Shown: in pieces, positions 505-17,519 of the stretch | How positions within the stretch are numbered: the first letter of the stretch is position 1 | Layout of the letters: each line of letters starts with the position of its first letter | Virus record (IMG/VR): IMGVR_UViG_3300017925_000171 | DNA length: 24,102 bases | Source of the DNA: a virus | Direction: 5' to 3' (one strand) | The notes under the pieces: model-generated | Told to the model about the DNA's origin: nothing | Database searches by the model: none | What the model saw: the letters and a program-made list of their open reading frames with translations, nothing else | Position numbers and translations under genes: made by a program

Positions 505-1013
505 GGGCCGGGCGCGGGGCACTTGTTCCCGCGCGTCGGGTGCATCCGGACGAACTGGAGGATTCGGGCGGGCTTCTCACCCTCCTCCCAGCAGAAGCGG
601 TTGACCTTCTGGAATCCAGCGTTCTCCAGCGCCCGGATGCTCGCCCGGTTGTCGAAGGTGACGTCTGCGGCCAGGACGCGGCACCCCTCGGTGCGCAGAG
701 CATCCTCAGCGTTCATCCGGTAGGTCCGGGTGCCAATCCCGTGGCCTCGCATGTCCTCTCGAACGGCACCCTGCTTCAACGTACAGAGGAACCAGTCGTT
801 CTGGACCCAGTGGATTCCGGAGACGATGTCGCTGGGTCGTCCGGGCTCGCAGAGCATAGTCCAGTTGGGGGCACGGCTGGCCTCCTCGATGACCTCCTCG
901 GGCAGGCCCTTCTCGGAGTTCTTCTCCAGGAACGTCTTCTTGGCCCGCTGTTCGGCTTCCTTCGAGGGGAATACGCAGGCCACGAGGCGCTGGGCGAGAT
1001 CGTCCTCGGGCAC
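501..1013 (-). CDS. GNAT family N-acetyltransferase
   Basis: Acetyl-CoA motif A (AVREDMRGHGIGT) and motif B (DNRASIRALENAGF). Six Cys residues. Confidence 0.85.
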   Translation of the reverse strand: MPEDDLAQRLVACVFPSKEAEQRAKKTFLEKNSEKGLPEEVIEEASRAPNWTMLCEPGRPSDIVSGIHWVQNDWFLCTLKQGAVREDMRGHGIGTRTYRMNAEDALRTEGCRVLAADVTFDNRASIRALENAGFQKVNRFCWEEGEKPARILQFVRMHPTRGNKCPAPGP

Positions 1014-1065
1014 GGATGGGGATAGGGCTCTTCAGCGTTAAGAACTCTTGCCGAGAAAAGGGTTG

Positions 1066-1097
1066 GACCGGGGCGCGCGGAGAGACGCACCCCGGTC
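1066..1097 (-). terminator. GC-rich hairpin followed by a short pyrimidine/T tract downstream of the small basic protein gene
   Basis: Minus strand GACCGGGGTGCGT-ctctcc-GCGCGCCCCGGTC forms a 13-bp stem (two G-U pairs), followed by caacccttttctc, in the intergenic gap 1014-1124. Confidence 0.45.
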
Positions 1098-1124
1098 TGG
1101 GGTTGGAAGGTGGTGAGGTGCGGC

Positions 1125-1343
1125 CTAGCCGCCCCGGCGCATCTTCGTGCCGACGCACGACATGGCCTTCACGAGTTCGGCCTTGCTCATCCCGCGGTGG
1201 ATTCCACACTCGCGGGCCGCGTTGCCGGCTCGGATCTGCTGGGGCGTCTTCGCGTACTTGCTGGGTCGCCAGGCGAGTACGAGATGACCCTTCGGCGAGA
1301 GCTTCTTGACGATGGCGTTTCGGCCTCCGGATACGATGGTCAT
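1125..1343 (-). CDS. Small highly basic protein (72 aa), putative nucleic-acid-binding or virion core protein
   Basis: 15 K+R versus 2 acidic residues. Has its own TATA box and GAGGT SD. Function is inferred from composition only. Confidence 0.7.
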   Translation of the reverse strand: MTIVSGGRNAIVKKLSPKGHLVLAWRPSKYAKTPQQIRAGNAARECGIHRGMSKAELVKAMSCVGTKMRRGG

Positions 1344-1349
1344 TTTCGG

Positions 1350-1384
1350 ACCTCTGGATGGGAATTGGGAAGGGGGGTTATAAA
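1350..1384 (-). promoter_or_regulatory. Archaeal-type TATA box plus Shine-Dalgarno for the small basic protein gene
   Basis: TTTATAA at 1384-1378, about 35 nt upstream of the ATG at 1343, and GAGGT at 1354-1350. An isolated AT patch in GC-rich DNA. Confidence 0.65.
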
Positions 1385-1403
1385 CGCCGCCCCAAATTCT
1401 TGG

Positions 1404-1712
1404 TCAAGTCAAAACGATGACCTGTCTAAGTCCGTCGTGATCTGTGACGAGAACCGGGCCGAGGTCGTGGGTGATTGGGCCACCCTTCGTCGCGACGACG
1501 ATCCGCGCCTTCCCGTAGGTGATCTCGTCGAGGGGAACGTAGTAGACGCCCTTCTCGCCGTTGGACCGCTTCCGGACCAACCCCTCCTCGGCCAAACGTC
1601 CGATCCGGTAGCGAAGGGCCGAGTCACGCTTAGCCAGGACCTTCGAGAGCTGATGGATCGTGGCCTCCTTCGTCAGGAGCGCCTGGATGATGCGGCTATC
1701 GAGTTGGTCCAT
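1404..1712 (-). CDS. Winged helix-turn-helix transcriptional regulator (ArsR/Lrp-like N-terminus)
   Basis: MDQLDSRIIQALL...ATIHQLSKVL...SALRYRIGRLAEEGLVRK...GVYYV matches the wHTH pattern. Confidence 0.8.
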   Translation of the reverse strand: MDQLDSRIIQALLTKEATIHQLSKVLAKRDSALRYRIGRLAEEGLVRKRSNGEKGVYYVPLDEITYGKARIVVATKGGPITHDLGPVLVTDHDGLRQVIVLT

Positions 1713-2471
1713 TCAAGCTCCTGGAGTCGTGGCGTGCGAAGCTCGACCCGCCAGTATACGAGCGCGTTTGACAGGGTCGGCCCAAGCAGCTTTGAGAGCC
1801 GCGGACCGCTTGGCCCTAGTAGCTGGTTGCCGCTGGGCATCCAGCCGATTGCGGGCATGGTCGGGATCGTTGGCCACGCGCTTCATGGTAGCGGAACGTG
1901 ATTCCCTAGCACCGGGTCGGGACCACTCTTCGGTCCTCAGCGCGGAATTGCGTTGGCGGTAACTTGAGGAGGACCGAGTGGCTACCTCCTTGTCTCGATA
2001 GGCGGCATCAGTCCAGAGGTCGGAGATCGCCTTCGCTTTCTTCTGGACGACCTCAGGCCGGGTCTGAGCTTCTCGTTGGATGACGACGTTCCTTGCACGA
2101 ACAGTTGGGTCGCTAAGCACGATTTTGGCTGCCTCGCTCATTCGGCGGCGAGTCTCCCCAGAGATGGCGCAGGAAGGACCGTTTCCCACCTTCAGAGTGT
2201 AGCCGTCCGGTACGAGAGCGTGATGGGTAATGGCATGGGCAAGCTCCCGCGAGTTCAGGTCGGTGCGGTCTGTAACTACCTCGAGAACCCGAAGGTCGAA
2301 CTGGTCAGCTCCGTATTTTAGAATCGCACGGTGAAGTGGCGAGTCGTACCTAGGACGCTTTGCTTCGGATTGGTGCTGCCACCAGCGAACCTCTAGCGGT
2401 CGGATGGTCTGTCCGACGTAGCACTTCCCGGTCGCCCGGCACGTCACGAGGTAGATGATTCCGCCCGTCAC
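1713..2471 (-). CDS. GIY-YIG homing-type endonuclease with C-terminal helical (NUMOD3-like) repeats
   Basis: GIIYLVTC...GKCYVGQT...RWWQH...ELNSRE...GYTL, followed by repeated W/L-x-DP-x-x-R units. Start reassigned to GTG 2471 (GTGA overlap with the thioredoxin gene). Codon usage is less GC3-biased than neighbours. Confidence 0.88.
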   Translation of the reverse strand: MTGGIIYLVTCRATGKCYVGQTIRPLEVRWWQHQSEAKRPRYDSPLHRAILKYGADQFDLRVLEVVTDRTDLNSRELAHAITHHALVPDGYTLKVGNGPSCAISGETRRRMSEAAKIVLSDPTVRARNVVIQREAQTRPEVVQKKAKAISDLWTDAAYRDKEVATRSSSSYRQRNSALRTEEWSRPGARESRSATMKRVANDPDHARNRLDAQRQPATRAKRSAALKAAWADPVKRARILAGRASHATTPGA

Positions 2472-2998
2472 CCGCTCCCCTCGGTCCGTTCCATGCACGC
2501 TACGATGTCCGCGGGGTCCTCGTACGACTCGCAGGCCTTGTTCGGGTCTTCCTCGGTAGGGGTTACGTCCTTACCCGCGGCGATGTCGGCGACGACCTGC
2601 TCGAGGTCGGGAGGGTCCATCGCCCCGCTGAACGCGACGACGCGCTCTCCGTTATGGTAGAAGACCGTGGTCGGTGTCGAATCGGCGCCCTCCTCTTCGG
2701 CCAGCTTGGAGCAGCCGTCCTCCTCGATCGAGGCCTCGACCGCGGCGAACCCCTTGTTCTTCCCCATGAGACCGACGGCGGCGGCGACCTGGTCGGCGCA
2801 GTGCGGGCACCCGGGCTGGGTGATGACGAACGCGACCACGGGCTTGAGCTTCTTCGCGGAGGCGACCGCGTCGGAGGAACAGTCCGCGATGGTCTCCTTG
2901 GCAGTCTCGAGGTCGGTGAGACGGGTCCGGCAGGCCGCCTCGTCGTTGATGACCCCCTTCAGGACGGCGCAGACCGTATCGGGGTCGGGGAGCGGCAT
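2468..2998 (-). CDS. Thioredoxin-fold protein (CPHC active site) with Cys-containing terminal extensions
   Basis: QPGCPHC motif, cis-Pro motif STPT, and FYHNGERV...GA. Real start is ATG 2998; the 5' part of track ORF 2468..3469 is an off-frame shadow. Eight Cys in total. Confidence 0.85.
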   Translation of the reverse strand: MPLPDPDTVCAVLKGVINDEAACRTRLTDLETAKETIADCSSDAVASAKKLKPVVAFVITQPGCPHCADQVAAAVGLMGKNKGFAAVEASIEEDGCSKLAEEEGADSTPTTVFYHNGERVVAFSGAMDPPDLEQVVADIAAGKDVTPTEEDPNKACESYEDPADIVACMERTEGSG

Positions 2999-4594: not shown

Positions 4595-4852
4595 TCACTC
4601 AGTCCAGGGAGCAGGGGCGCCGTCCTCGACACCGGATACAGGAACCTCTCGGCATCCCGAGCAGTGGTGTCGGGCGGGCTTACCACGTTCCAGGATGGGC
4701 CACCTGTCCCGGCACCATTCCTCTCCGTGGATGGGGCAAAGGTGGAAGGTACGGGGCCACCGGTCGACGAGGCCCCCGATGACGGGAACGAGGGGTGACC
4801 CGTGGAATCCGATCGCGTTCGGGGCCGTCCCCACGCTGGTGGCCGAAACCAT
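4595..4852 (-). CDS. Hypothetical Cys/His-rich protein (85 aa)
   Basis: This frame is GC3-rich, has purine-rich SD GAAGAGGGG, and carries CPIH...C...HCSGC. Confidence 0.5.
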   Translation of the reverse strand: MVSATSVGTAPNAIGFHGSPLVPVIGGLVDRWPRTFHLCPIHGEEWCRDRWPILERGKPARHHCSGCREVPVSGVEDGAPAPWTE

Positions 4853-4883
4853 GGCCCCTCTTCAAAGGGGCGCTCAAATCGCA

Positions 4884-6212
4884 TCATGCCCGCGCGTCCG
4901 CGTCCGACGGCATCTCGGTCCAGGTCCGCCCGTCGATAACGGCCTTGTCGTGGGACCGGGCGTCGGGCCACCCTCCGAGTTGTTTGAGGAAGAAAGGGAT
5001 GCGAACGGCAGCGCAGGCATCGCGTAGAGACCTAGCCCAATCCAATTCCATGGGACGAGACCGTGGTCCGCTCTCACCCCCGCAAATTACCCAAGAAATC
5101 CCCAGCGCTGGCCAAGGCAAATCTTTGAGATGGCCCTGTCGGACACCCCGTAACGCGCCGCGATATCCTTCAACGACTCCCCGGCGAGTCTGCGTTTCCG
5201 AATCTCCAAGACCTGAGAGTTCGTTAGCTTCGCCATGACATTGGCCTCTCCCTGTTGGTCCAGTCGCCCGACTTTGAGCACACGAAGCGCGTGGACCACA
5301 TTCCCAGATGGCGTCACTAGTTCGAGGTTGTTTGGCCGATTGTCCCACTTTCGGCCGTTCCTGTGATTGACGGTCAATCCGTCGGGTATCGGGCCATTGA
5401 AGTGGCGATAGACCAATCGGTGGGCCAGAGCGAAGTATCGTATCGAATCGAACATGGCTCTCACCTGGAGATAACCAGAAGGTACCCGGTGCTCCGCCCT
5501 CCGCCGTGGGCACGCGATCATCCGAGATGATTTCCCTCTCCCAGGACCGCGGTTCGCAGCAACCCTCCAAACCCGGCCCTTCGAATCTATATTCAGGTCT
5601 CCCCTCATAACGGCTTTGTAGACCATCTCCTCTCGGTGTAGGGTTGCGACCATTGATTGGGCTATATTTAAGCCAAGTAGATAAGTCTACTGGTCCGAGA
5701 AGTGGTTCGCAGGAAAGGAACCGTATGCGCGCGTGAACGTTGAGGAGTGGGGGAATCCGTCGGTTCGCGTTTGTTTGGTTTTCGACACTGGCCCCCAGCC
5801 AGACATTCGGGTAGCCGTCGCCCCAATCGGGGGGGAGCATGTGGGGGATGTTCTCGGGGCGTTTGGTGAGGACCTGGAACACGTGCCGCTTCGCCTCGCG
5901 CATCACGTCCCACACCTCGGCGCGGAACTCTTTCGGGACTGTTTCGTGGAACAGGTCGCTCCGGGAGTTGACGAAGACCATCCTAGGTTCTCTCCACTGG
6001 AGAGGTAGTTTGAGCCGGTCTGGGAAGCAACGAACATTGAGTGGCGCGTTGGGGTGCGTCCAAGGAAGGTACGGCTTGCCCTCCTGCGTCATTCGGAACC
6101 TCCTGTCGAGGGTCTCGGCGTAGCAGTGCCGGCAGCCTTCGCTGACCTGAGAGCAACCCACGATGGGGTTCCAAGTGGACTCGGTCCACGCAATCCCGGT
6201 CTTAGCGCCCAT
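4884..6212 (-). CDS. DUF5131 / phage Gp37-Gp68 family protein (radical-SAM-like three-Cys motif) with an approximately 190-codon in-frame insertion
   Basis: TGIAWTESTWNPIVGCSQVSEGCRHCYAE, VFVNSRSDLFH, FQVLTKRP, NVWLGASVENQ, RFLSCEPLLGP, then after the insert WVICGGESG and PFFLKQLGG. Start reassigned to ATG 6212 (GAGGT SD). Confidence 0.9.
   Translation of the reverse strand: MGAKTGIAWTESTWNPIVGCSQVSEGCRHCYAETLDRRFRMTQEGKPYLPWTHPNAPLNVRCFPDRLKLPLQWREPRMVFVNSRSDLFHETVPKEFRAEVWDVMREAKRHVFQVLTKRPENIPHMLPPDWGDGYPNVWLGASVENQTNANRRIPPLLNVHARIRFLSCEPLLGPVDLSTWLKYSPINGRNPTPRGDGLQSRYEGRPEYRFEGPGLEGCCEPRSWEREIISDDRVPTAEGGAPGTFWLSPGESHVRFDTILRSGPPIGLSPLQWPDTRRIDRQSQERPKVGQSAKQPRTSDAIWECGPRASCAQSRATGPTGRGQCHGEANELSGLGDSETQTRRGVVEGYRGALRGVRQGHLKDLPWPALGISWVICGGESGPRSRPMELDWARSLRDACAAVRIPFFLKQLGGWPDARSHDKAVIDGRTWTEMPSDADARA
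5087..5653 (-). CDS. HNH homing endonuclease (HNH_3-like plus C-terminal HTH) nested in the +1 frame inside DUF5131
   Basis: GYLQV...AHRLVYRHFNGPIPDGLTVNHRNGRKWDNRPNNLELVTPSGNVVHA, then GEANVMAKLTNSQVLEIR...IAARYGVS. Alternative start is ATG 5626. Confidence 0.9.
   Translation of the reverse strand: MVATLHREEMVYKAVMRGDLNIDSKGRVWRVAANRGPGRGKSSRMIACPRRRAEHRVPSGYLQVRAMFDSIRYFALAHRLVYRHFNGPIPDGLTVNHRNGRKWDNRPNNLELVTPSGNVVHALRVLKVGRLDQQGEANVMAKLTNSQVLEIRKRRLAGESLKDIAARYGVSDRAISKICLGQRWGFLG
5663..5672 (-). promoter_or_regulatory. Candidate internal TATA box for the nested HNH gene
   Basis: Minus strand CTTAAATATA, formed by the L-K-Y codons of DUF5131, about 38 nt upstream of ATG 5626. Similar spacing to the promoter at 1378-1384. 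Confidence 0.4.
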
Positions 6213-6813
6213 GCCCAACCTCTCGGAGGACATCGACGAGCTTGGCTCTCGCCGTGTTCGCATGTTTCTCAGCATCGTTGAAGGAGATCGCCTGCGTCTG
6301 GACGACGTCGTCCAGGGCTGAGCGGACCCGGTCCTTCAGTAGTCTCTCCCGATCGAATTCCTTAACCAGCGCCCGGGCCGCAACCCGATAAGGGGCTCCT
6401 GGGTCATCCGACCACTGGAACTCCTCGGAGGCGTCCGTCGGTGCGACGATGTGGCCGCGCCCATAATCGTCCTTACCCGCGCTCGGCCAGCTGCGCTTCA
6501 ACGACACGAGGTAAGCGTTGGAGTCGTCGGCCCATTCGAGCACGTAGGCCCGGTCGATGTCGACCTCCGCCGGATAGGCCTCGGCGATGAACATCGGCAC
6601 GGCGCGCACATAGTCGAGCCACTCCGGAACAACGGTTTTGGTGACGCTGCCGAACTCGGGCTCTGTCGGCGGGTGCCCGAGATTGAAGGCCTCGGGAGGT
6701 CCCGCGATCGCATTGAGGACGGACCGGGTCTCGGCCAGAATCGGCCCGGACAGAACGGGTGCGATGACCTGGATGGGCTCGGGCCCGTAGGGATTCTGGA
6801 TAGTCTGGGTCAT
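6202..6813 (-). CDS. Hypothetical protein (203 aa)
   Basis: ATGA overlap upstream, GC3-rich codons, overlaps the DUF5131 start. Confidence 0.75.
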   Translation of the reverse strand: MTQTIQNPYGPEPIQVIAPVLSGPILAETRSVLNAIAGPPEAFNLGHPPTEPEFGSVTKTVVPEWLDYVRAVPMFIAEAYPAEVDIDRAYVLEWADDSNAYLVSLKRSWPSAGKDDYGRGHIVAPTDASEEFQWSDDPGAPYRVAARALVKEFDRERLLKDRVRSALDDVVQTQAISFNDAEKHANTARAKLVDVLREVGHGR

Positions 6814-15827: not shown

Positions 15828-17519
15828 CTAGTGCGGCGCCGGGTAATCGAACTTCTCGCCATCGAGGAGCTGCTTCACCGTCCGGACCTGTAGGCGCATG
15901 TACGGCTCCGACCGGGTCAGACTCGCTTGGGCCGGGCGATAGGTTCCGACGCTCGCGGCCTCCTTGGTCATCTCCTTCGTCGCGTCGTTGAGGGTGATGA
16001 AGAACCCGAAGGTCGCGTTCTGGCGGCGCATCGTCCCCGACAGGTCCCGAATGTCCCGCGAGCTCGTCTTCCCGCCCTTGACTTGGGCGAGGATCAGGCG
16101 CTCCGTGCCGTCGACCTCCTGATACCTGAGCCGCCCGTCGATACCCTGGTCGGCCCCCTTCTGCGGCTTGCCATCCCTCATGTTCGGGTGGACCCCGGCC
16201 AGTCCGCAGGCCCAGGCCTGGAATTGGTACGGGTCTTGGGTGAACAGCTCCTCGGCTCCGGCCTCGTCCTTGGGCAAACCCACGACCTCATAGGTCCGCG
16301 GGTTTACGCCATCGGCCGTGAGCCGCGCACGGATGATGGATACCGCAACGTGGGTGATGTCAATCCCAACCCACCGACGCCGAAGACTCTGAGCGGCGGC
16401 AATTGCCGTACCGCATCCACAGAATGGGTCGAGGACAACTTGGCCGGTATCCGTACTCGATTCGATTATCCGTTTTAGGAGCCCTCTTGGCTTCTGGGTT
16501 TGAAACCCAGTCTTCTCGTCTCCATCTTCGAGCCAGGCAACATCCTCGTCGATTCCGTCCTCGGTTCCAAAAAGTATCCCGCGGGTGCCTGGTTGGTACG
16601 CCCAGATATCCTGGTAAGGGACCCCGGTACCAATGTACTGCTTGTAGGTCGGCATACCGGATTCGCTCTTCGGCATCTCAATTGCGCTGTCAGGCTGGTC
16701 GGCGAGGTAGTCAAGCTTCTGCTGGAGGGTCATGTTCTCGCCCCCGTTGGGCAACAGTTTCTTGAGCGAGCCCGCAATGGCCCAGTGCCGACCGCGTTCG
16801 GTAGGGTCGAACCCCCTCCAGGCCTCGCCGCTCGAACCGTGACTCACCCCGGCGCCAGTTAGCGTCTGCTGCCGGAAGAGGCCCTTATCGTCAGAGCCTT
16901 TGAACCGGCCCTCGATGTAGCTCTTCGGGTATGGGCGCCTTCCAGGATGGAACATGGACTTGTCGCTCTTGGTATAGAACAGGATTGTGTCGTGAATCGG
17001 CCCGAATTGGCGTGTCAACTTGTTGTGGGCAGTCTTACGGCGCCATACGATTTCGCTCCGAAAGTTCTCAGGATGGAAGGTCGAATCCAATAGAATCTTC
17101 AGGTAATGACTGGCCGTCGGGTCGCAGTGCAGATAGATGCTCCCCGTGGATCTCAGCACCCGTCGGAGCTCCGCGAGTCGCGGTGCCATCATGCAGAGGT
17201 ACGCGAGCATGTCGTTCTCGCCGAGTATTGTCCGTAGCCCGGAAACCGTGTCGGCAAGCTTCCCGCCGGCCTTCAGGATCTCGTCGTACTCCTGCTGGGC
17301 TCTCGGACCCCAACCCCAGGTGTCGTTGAAGGCGTTGACCTGCGCCTCCGAACCCTTGAAGACGGCGTTGTAGTTCCGCTGGGAGTTGAACGGAGGATCG
17401 AGGTAGACCAGGTCTACCGACTCGTCCTTGATGTAGCGGCGCAGGACGTCGAGGTTGTCTCCGTAGTAGAGGGTGTTCGTCGCTCCGCGTTGGTCTTTCT
17501 TCCCTTGCATGTTCTTCAC
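15828..17519 (-). CDS. Site-specific N4/N6 DNA methyltransferase (beta class) fused to a C-terminal Mrr-like PD-(D/E/Q)xK nuclease domain
   Basis: LYYGDNL, VYLDPPFNS (motif IV), GSIYLHCD, FQTQKP, and VLDPFCGCGT (motif I). C-terminal GADQGIDG...LAQVKGG...RDIRDLSGTM...GFFITL. Confidence 0.92.
   Translation of the reverse strand: MKNMQGKKDQRGATNTLYYGDNLDVLRRYIKDESVDLVYLDPPFNSQRNYNAVFKGSEAQVNAFNDTWGWGPRAQQEYDEILKAGGKLADTVSGLRTILGENDMLAYLCMMAPRLAELRRVLRSTGSIYLHCDPTASHYLKILLDSTFHPENFRSEIVWRRKTAHNKLTRQFGPIHDTILFYTKSDKSMFHPGRRPYPKSYIEGRFKGSDDKGLFRQQTLTGAGVSHGSSGEAWRGFDPTERGRHWAIAGSLKKLLPNGGENMTLQQKLDYLADQPDSAIEMPKSESGMPTYKQYIGTGVPYQDIWAYQPGTRGILFGTEDGIDEDVAWLEDGDEKTGFQTQKPRGLLKRIIESSTDTGQVVLDPFCGCGTAIAAAQSLRRRWVGIDITHVAVSIIRARLTADGVNPRTYEVVGLPKDEAGAEELFTQDPYQFQAWACGLAGVHPNMRDGKPQKGADQGIDGRLRYQEVDGTERLILAQVKGGKTSSRDIRDLSGTMRRQNATFGFFITLNDATKEMTKEAASVGTYRPAQASLTRSEPYMRLQVRTVKQLLDGEKFDYPAPH

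Follow-up and report, generated by a model that had tools for sequence, protein, structure and literature searches.

An HNH homing-type endonuclease gene nested in the +1 frame of a viral DUF5131 gene whose own frame is kept free of stops

The common view is that a homing endonuclease gene can persist within another gene only if it is carried by a self-splicing intron or intein. A layout with neither was published in February 2025 for DNA methylases of mycobacteriophages, in the ShiLan domain and in the insertion of Pacc40 gp60 (Arsenault, Gosselin, Gogarten, Genes 2025, PMC11855218): an HNH open reading frame (ORF) lies out of frame in the insertion, the host frame runs through it uninterrupted by stops, the HNH ORF terminates at the insertion end, no intron or intein is present, and the insertion is predicted to form a loop. 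Free-standing homologues were described beside insert-free targets, and leaderless initiation of the endonuclease together with an unspliced loop was proposed (PMC11855218). Out-of-frame endonuclease genes are also described in inteins, namely endonuclease VII-like genes in actinobacteriophages (bioRxiv 10.1101/2025.01.02.630785) and a cyanobacterial dnaX intein (bioRxiv 10.64898/2026.09.14.751524). Here we analyse 24,102 nucleotides (nt) of viral DNA (IMG/VR record IMGVR_UViG_3300017925_000171; this whole stretch is called the window), in which an HNH endonuclease gene is nested within a gene of the DUF5131 family. Judged from sequence comparison, the locus is a further case of the ShiLan-type layout, with the insert presumably retained in mRNA and protein. 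A first-pass annotation of the window had proposed a splicing-independent strategy in which the endonuclease gene is tolerated as an overprinted loop; the comparative tests support this, while the strategy itself is not new, having been published for the methylases (PMC11855218). What is new here is the DUF5131 host family, a quantitative test of stop avoidance with free-standing controls, the co-occurrence of both alleles in nature and the conserved start signals.

The host gene (PF07505, phage Gp37/Gp68, a subgroup of the radical-SAM superfamily) occupies 4884..6212 on the minus strand and encodes 442 residues from the ATG at 6212. The open frame itself starts at 6275, so that the ORF 4884..6275 has 463 residues without a stop, and the ATG at 6212 is the likely true start, as it matches that of the insert-free homologue P0002 at locus L003 and overlaps the upstream gene by 11 nt, the same as in that homologue. 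The Pfam match (9e-84; 281 bits against a cut-off of 28.9) is divided into two stretches, residues 25-200 (profile positions 1-174) and a second one downstream of the insert, on either side of a gap of approximately 190 residues. This gap holds the nested gene at 5087..5653 on the minus strand, which encodes 188 residues with an HNH_3 domain (2e-16; 59.8 bits, cut-off 24.8) and a C-terminal helix-turn-helix (HTH) domain with weak matches only, and which is offset by 622 from 6275, i.e., it lies in frame +1 of the host. The first-pass annotation had claimed exactly this, an open DUF5131 frame over 4884-6212 with a complete HNH and HTH gene in its +1 frame, and both ORF calling and Pfam confirm it. 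Among solved structures, I-HmuI (PDB 1u3e, E=1e-4) comes nearest to the nested protein, and N96, H97, N99, D104, N105, N109 and H121 are invariant among three aligned nested copies. The GC content per codon position of the HNH gene (0.60/0.45/0.66) is a coding signature, and the insert as a whole has 57–58% GC against 62–70% in the flanks.

The fit of the nested gene to the insert is close, since 567 of approximately 576 inserted bases belong to the HNH ORF. As had been pointed out from the sequence, it fills the gap between the conserved host motifs and its last codons (W-G-F-L-G-stop) overlap the host codons G-I-S-W-V-I; the stop TAA at 5087..5089 lies within the V-I codons of the host W-V-I (TGG GTA ATT, 5085..5093, minus strand), just before the host motif G-G-E-S-G (5067..5081, minus strand), which directly follows the insert and is kept in nested hosts. 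Twenty nested loci were compared for the position of the HNH stop: in 11 it has the same offset (-8) from GGESG, within the W-V/L-I codons, and in six more it lies 5–20 nt before GGESG. A subgroup of three HNH copies (L050, L058, L062; Shimodaira-Hasegawa-like approximate likelihood ratio test, SH-aLRT, 100) is also nested at +1, with the stop 224–278 nt before GGESG, and this position may represent an independent second insertion site in the same loop. Among insert-free homologues, the segment from CEPLLG to GGESG, motifs included, ranges from 24 to 72 residues; going by these lengths, the insertion site is a naturally permissive, length-variable loop.

Relatives were collected in two ways. 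The search with the host protein returned P0002 (87% identical, insert-free) and six distant homologues (approximately 40% identical, 391–511 residues), all six of which carry a long insert at the same site; when these inserts were translated in all frames, as the first-pass annotation had suggested, an HNH ORF turned up in the +1 frame of each. The second search used the HNH protein alone against viral contigs, species-representative genomes and metagenomes, which avoids a bias toward open host frames, and each locus was then classed by tblastn with the N- and C-terminal parts of DUF5131. It yielded 26 distinct nested loci, in all 26 of which both host parts stand in one frame, the HNH is at +1 and there is no host-frame stop between them; orthologues with the same insert and host-frame stops, named beforehand as a refutation, were thus looked for among these 26 and none was seen. 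Besides viral contigs, contigs of metagenome-assembled genomes (MAGs) labelled Chloroflexota, Caulobacteraceae, Bacillaceae and Azonexaceae carry nested copies, and the HNH of the window shares 42–62% identity with the HNH ORFs that other DUF5131 genes have at this site.

A host-frame stop arises wherever an HNH codon ending in T precedes a codon starting with AA, AG or GA, a rule already stated in the first-pass annotation, and a correct one. The HNH gene has 32 codons ending in T and 43 starting with AA, AG or GA, from which 7.3 stops are expected under independence, and the host frame has none across the insert. When synonymous codons were permuted within the same amino acid, which had been proposed as a check, the mean was 7.8 stops and zero stops occurred in 2 of 20,000 permutations (P approximately 1e-4); shuffling the codon order of the HNH gave P = 1e-4 for an open host frame. 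The other same-strand frame across the HNH has 10 stops, and the reverse frames have 5–6. The same permutation applied to each nested relative gave 1.5–7.8 expected stops, with the probability of none between 0 and 0.02 except for one short copy. Pooling 21 full-length nested copies, 0 of 954 codons before AA, AG or GA end in T, against 18.7% T elsewhere, so that approximately 178 host-frame stops are expected and none is seen. Free-standing or adjacent HNH relatives have 21.6% T at such sites, corresponding to 122 stops, and individual free-standing copies carry 6–13 stops in the corresponding frame, near expectation. Two free-standing copies that fall inside the nested cluster of the HNH tree, L012 and L014, have 7 and 13 stops, and therefore stop avoidance belongs to nesting and not to the HNH lineage.

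Decayed copies tell the same story of an open frame: one HNH copy with an internal stop (L008) and four without the C-terminal part (L018, L019, L051, L060) keep the host frame open, and all length changes in such copies are multiples of three. The register itself makes the avoidance affordable. In the host register (HNH codon positions 3, 1, 2) every stop can be erased by a silent change from NNT to NNC and no dipeptide forces a stop, whereas in the other register 0–3 dipeptides per copy do; because each NNT codon has a synonymous NNC, clearing the host frame costs the HNH nothing. That the open frame is a by-product of high GC would be conceivable in view of the long spurious ORFs common in flanks of 65–70% GC, but the probability at the locus, the complete lack of the pooled expected stops, and the many stops in that frame of homologous free-standing genes of similar GC leave this explanation a vanishingly small chance. 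Selection, not chance, holds the host frame open.

The signature of mobility comes from an insert-free allele with the same neighbours (L003), which is about 99–100% identical in DNA outside 4992..5796. Within these limits 805 nt of the window replace 259 nt of the insert-free allele in the DNA alignment (the exchanged, or co-conversion, tract), which makes the allele of the window longer by 546 nt (182 codons). At the protein level, the N-terminal core is 98% and the C-terminal end 100% identical to P0002, while the stretches adjoining the insert are 47–53% identical to it and mostly 56–71% identical to distant insert-bearing proteins; for the flank tract the values are 47% against P0002 and 56–67% against the insert-bearing proteins. 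Such a mosaic is the footprint expected if homing took place with co-conversion of donor flanks. The sequence was found in 24 peat and wetland metagenome runs. One contig of run X19 joins position 4991 to 5797 via 259 other letters, other X19 contigs cover the insert, and in run X22 a contig breaks at 4991; both alleles thus coexist in natural populations, in the same peat samples (X19, X22). The nested form is not an assembly artefact, because both of its junctions are spanned by independent contigs from other samples.

A quick tree groups all nested HNH copies in a single cluster of 33 rows (SH-aLRT 91), adjoined by free-standing copies beside intact DUF5131 genes (L013, L020, L048 and others); this is consistent, though with weak support, with a movement of the HNH from beside its target to the inside of it. 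Free-standing HNH genes stand directly upstream or downstream of an insert-free DUF5131 gene at L013, L020, L048, L049, L052, L053, L054, L057 and L061, of which L020 is from the cultured Solidesulfovibrio alcoholivorans DSM 5433. The same association, in which many unrelated contigs have a relative of this HNH clade within or immediately next to a DUF5131 gene, could also be taken to mean that the HNH is a domesticated partner of DUF5131 and not a selfish homing gene. We consider this quite unlikely: phages that have a near-identical backbone and come from the same samples differ in having or lacking the gene, the co-conversion mosaic and the decayed copies are hallmarks of a homing cycle, and a position adjoining the target is the classic one of free-standing homing endonucleases such as the T4 seg and mob genes. 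What is seen is a footprint of homing, i.e., the co-conversion tract and the presence/absence polymorphism; a homing gene of this kind would be predicted to cut the insert-free allele and to spare the insert-bearing one.

One further relative, L011, has a 456-residue ORF (966-2336, plus strand) in which an HNH of the same clade is nested at 1462-2112, with 0 stops in the overlapping frame against 7.4 expected. This ORF keeps fragments of DUF5131 (a G-I-G-W start, a Y-I-G-Y-N-P junction and a D-Q-C-R-A-A-G...K-Q tail) and is without GGESG and most of the DUF5131 core; it may be a decayed host or another host gene.

The host protein bears signs of selection on both sides of the insert. Its N-terminal region has a cysteine triad C-x6-C-x2-C (6123..6155, minus strand), the presumed ligands of an Fe-S cluster, and the residues C20, C27 and C30 of the 442-residue protein are invariant in 68 aligned homologues, insert-bearing ones included. 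Downstream of the insert G378, E380, R386, K410 and Q411 are invariant in an alignment that includes the nested hosts, so that all invariant residues on both sides (the triad; GGESG, R and KQ) are kept in nested hosts, and since they are kept there, the C-terminal part should still be translated and under selection. DUF5131 is listed among the radical-SAM subgroups (PMC9477430), and its best, although weak, fold matches are to the radical-SAM spore photoproduct lyase. The genes around it are packed tightly on one strand, with an MCM-like ATPase gene downstream. It could be argued from this packing, and from the 11-nt overlap at the upstream junction, that the host enzyme is dead and that its frame is open only to keep ribosomes moving, either avoiding Rho polarity or maintaining the coupling to the ATPase gene. 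This is very unlikely in our opinion, as the nested hosts are only approximately 40% identical overall and nevertheless keep all the invariant residues; because they are kept at this identity, protein-level selection on both host halves is indicated. A gene split by a free-standing endonuclease with a translational restart was also considered and is excluded by the continuous host frame and by the lack of an in-frame start or Shine-Dalgarno (SD) site for the C-terminal host part before W-V-I-C-G-G-E-S-G.

Read in the host frame, the insert gives approximately 192 codons without a stop (5094..5669, minus strand; K-Y-S-P-I-N ... A-L-G-I-S), situated between the native motifs D-L-S-x-W-L and W-V-I-x-G-G-E-S-G. 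Compared pairwise, nested copies have a median identity of 52% when read in the HNH frame but of 29% in the host frame, about the level of the third, non-coding frame (31%); by this measure the host-frame peptide is under no detectable constraint beyond the absence of stops and appears to evolve like non-coding sequence. R, G, S, D, E, P and Q are abundant in it, and 24% of its residues are hydrophobic, compared with 38% for the HNH. The hydrophobicity of nested host-frame peptides is also lower than that of the same frame in free-standing relatives (0.23 vs. 0.33); this was set aside as evidence, as it may merely reflect GC content. No Pfam family matched any of seven homologous host-frame inserts, and a region-restricted database search with the insert peptide returned its own source protein alone, which is a sign of weak conservation and nothing more. 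In the AlphaFold2 (AF2) model the host core segments have a predicted local distance difference test (pLDDT) score above 90, and residues 190-362 of the 442-residue protein are below 50. The insert is thus probably a hydrophilic, disordered loop of about 190 residues; the first-pass annotation had described it as motif-free and linker-like.

An intron or intein structure at the insert, likewise named beforehand as a possible refutation, was looked for with the Rfam and Pfam libraries, within whose limits no splicing module was found. No group I or group II intron family matches in the window at E<=10, nor in 12 nested relatives at E<=1, and the sole Rfam matches in the region are at chance level (Atu_C7, E=2.4; bxd_2, E=7.4). 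No Hint or intein domain was matched by Pfam in the host protein or in the seven host-frame inserts. The residues at the junctions vary among nested loci (G-I-S-W, L-I-H-W, K-L-D-W, G-I-D-F and others), and neither an intein-type nucleophile nor a His-Asn pair is conserved there in the nested loci compared. That a ribozyme or host factor missing from Rfam excises the insert from the RNA would be in keeping with the classical association of I-HmuI-family HNH genes with group I introns. However, a spliced insert needs no open frame, and all 26 of 26 lineages avoid stops; merely 10–30 nt or so lie outside the HNH ORF, and Rfam is blank for the window and its relatives, so that we regard such removal as highly improbable.

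Removal could also take place after translation. Here the insert would be translated in the host frame and then removed or cut, either by a non-canonical self-splicing without a Hint domain or by proteolysis of the loop, leaving two associated fragments. This would account for stop avoidance equally well as an uncut loop, and inteins with out-of-frame endonuclease genes are indeed known in actinobacteriophages (bioRxiv 10.1101/2025.01.02.630785). Nonetheless, we judge it unlikely: the host-frame insert holds no Hint, intein or other Pfam family, its junctions lack the conserved nucleophile and His-Asn, its peptide is conserved no better than the non-coding frame, AF2 predicts no fold in it, and the HNH fills nearly the whole insert, leaving no space for a splicing domain of approximately 130 residues.

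As to how the HNH itself may be expressed, start contexts were compared in 27 nested loci anchored on their start codons. A perfect TATAAT (6/6) stands before the ATG with a spacer of 7 in six of them (L004, L016, L039, L043, L050, L055), and three more have a 5/6 match at the same spacing (L009, L044, L060); none of these nine copies has an SD site, whereas in most other nested copies host Gly codons spell out an SD site of the GGAGG type. The geometry TATAAT-N7-ATG is the one expected of a leaderless transcript, from which the HNH would be expressed. In the window the corresponding element is TATAGC (5661..5666), a weak match to this putative -10 box, which with its 7-nt spacer (5654..5666, minus strand) lies directly upstream of the HNH ATG. 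In one nested copy (L046), upstream of the HNH start at about position 371, the ancestral context TAAT-CCAGTGT-ATG reads ATA in place of ATG, and a new ATG with an AAGGA SD site follows about 20 nt downstream, as if leaderless initiation had given way to an SD-led start. A programmed frameshift fusing the N-terminal part of DUF5131 to the HNH was rejected, since a stop in the HNH frame lies close upstream of the start in many loci (3 nt away in L010 and L017, 36 nt at the 5653 start); no slippery site is conserved near the HNH start in the nested loci compared.

Taken together, we would put at roughly three in four the probability that an I-HmuI-like HNH invaded the DUF5131 loop, that the insert is translated through, unspliced, as a loop, and that the HNH is expressed separately. 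The HNH gene would have entered the length-variable loop between EPLLG and WVIxGGESG of a phage DUF5131 by double-strand-break repair from a divergent donor allele, dragging along approximately 140 nt and 95 nt of donor flank. The host ribosome would read through the HNH in the register of its codon positions 3, 1 and 2, and purifying selection would clear every NNT|AA, NNT|AG and NNT|GA junction. The enzyme would be intact apart from an added loop of about 190 residues, hydrophilic and probably disordered, and this read-through protein would be both made and functional. Independently of it, the HNH would be translated from signals of its own that are embedded in host codons, either TATAAT-N7-ATG or an SD site, and would terminate on the stop inside the conserved W-V-I codons of the host.

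Several points weigh against this reading. The avoidance of stops is as well explained by some post-translational removal of the insert. Low AF2 confidence falls short of proving disorder, and the tolerance of the loop by the host is something that we infer from conservation alone. The -10-like hexamer of the window is weak (TATAGC, without the final T) and is accompanied by no SD site, and a sigma-70 scan requiring both hexamers gave no promoter in 4800..6400. The HNH tree came from a quick search and has weak support. Finally, no RNA run is listed among the runs that carry the sequence.

The locus and its 25 relatives lend clean comparative evidence to a splicing-free route so far argued from a few mycobacteriophage methylases, with members of one HNH clade that are free-standing with many stops in that frame or nested with none. 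It is also a compact, testable system of one 1.3-kb ORF and one nuclease of 188 residues, of use for studying how overlapping genes evolve, how a radical-SAM-type fold tolerates long disordered insertions and how internal leaderless initiation works, and it is a warning for annotation, as unusually long DUF5131 proteins hide a second gene. Reading the silent T-to-C register, the leaderless promoter and the borrowed stop jointly, overprinted nesting could even be a third general lifestyle of homing endonucleases beside introns and inteins, a tentative generalisation which we hold to be rather doubtful. A free-standing gene next to its target would move into a permissive loop, the only register used would be that in which silent T-to-C changes erase all host-frame stops, the leaderless promoter (TATAAT-N7-ATG) would be set in host codons, and the stop would be borrowed from a conserved host motif. 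If true, this would be a recurrent source of new disordered enzyme loops and possibly of precursors of inteins with out-of-frame endonucleases.

The surroundings of the locus look viral or mobile, with the MCM-like AAA ATPase, a GIY-YIG protein and an N6/N4 methylase with an Mrr-type nuclease domain. The GIY-YIG catalytic domain (4e-7) is in an ORF of 261 residues (1713-2498, minus strand); the contig may here carry a second nuclease of the homing type, a free-standing one. The N6_N4 DNA methylase (15828-17519, minus strand; 563 residues) has a C-terminal Mrr_cat restriction-endonuclease domain; its methylase match is spread across 362 residues for a profile of 221 positions, and no notable nested ORF in an alternative frame was seen in it on inspection. 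The phage GenBank collection contains no close relative of the locus and no record covering the insert; the N-terminal region of DUF5131 has 70–76% DNA identity, over a part of the region only, to Gordonia and Mycobacterium phages. The nested DUF5131 gene of L043 is followed directly by a pair of tRNA genes within 2253-2406 (63 and 59 bits with Rfam). Another nested contig (L002) has two more HNH ORFs, at 147-443 and 6066-6560 (weak PF01844; PF13392), and several endonuclease genes therefore populate one phage genome.

Set beside known systems, the locus has partial parallels in several. The seg and mob genes of T4, and mobE, which splits nrdA in the Aeromonas phage Aeh1, are free-standing homing endonucleases that flank or split their targets. 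They share with our case homing without an intron or intein, the co-conversion of flanks and, in the form of the HNH relatives, a position beside an intact target, here DUF5131; in the split genes, however, the host ORF is in two separately translated pieces, while here the frame is continuous. LAGLIDADG genes are reportedly fused in frame into the mitochondrial rps3 of ascomycetes, which is likewise a homing endonuclease gene inside a protein-coding gene without intron or intein, but there the frame is the same and the product is fused to the host protein, whereas here the frame is another one and the product would be separately translated. I-HmuI (1u3e, Bacillus phage SPO1) has the same order of an HNH_3 catalytic core followed by a DNA-binding tail, and differs in riding a self-splicing group I intron, where no intron was found here. 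The inteins with out-of-frame endonucleases share an endonuclease gene written over host-frame sequence that has to remain free of stops; those elements, however, keep splicing blocks that excise the host-frame peptide, and no such blocks were found here.

The ShiLan type remains the closest. Shared with it are a complete HNH ORF in another same-strand frame of an insertion in a conserved phage gene, a stop-free host frame, an HNH stop at the insertion end, no detectable intron or intein, a predicted loop, a patchy distribution among close relatives, and free-standing homologues beside insert-free targets. The differences are that the host here is the radical-SAM-family DUF5131, which is absent from PMC11855218; that the endonuclease is an I-HmuI-like HNH_3 with HTH and not an HNH flanked by zinc fingers; that it lies in the host +1 frame, while the 'third frame' is given there; and that our copies come from environmental viral contigs and MAG contigs of several phyla instead of mycobacteriophages. 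Four features that mark this type, namely presence and absence among near-identical relatives, a stop-free frame beyond chance, an ORF that fills the insert and no splicing module recognised by Rfam or Pfam, were found at the DUF5131 locus; a fifth, the presence of the insert in the mature mRNA and protein, is predicted.

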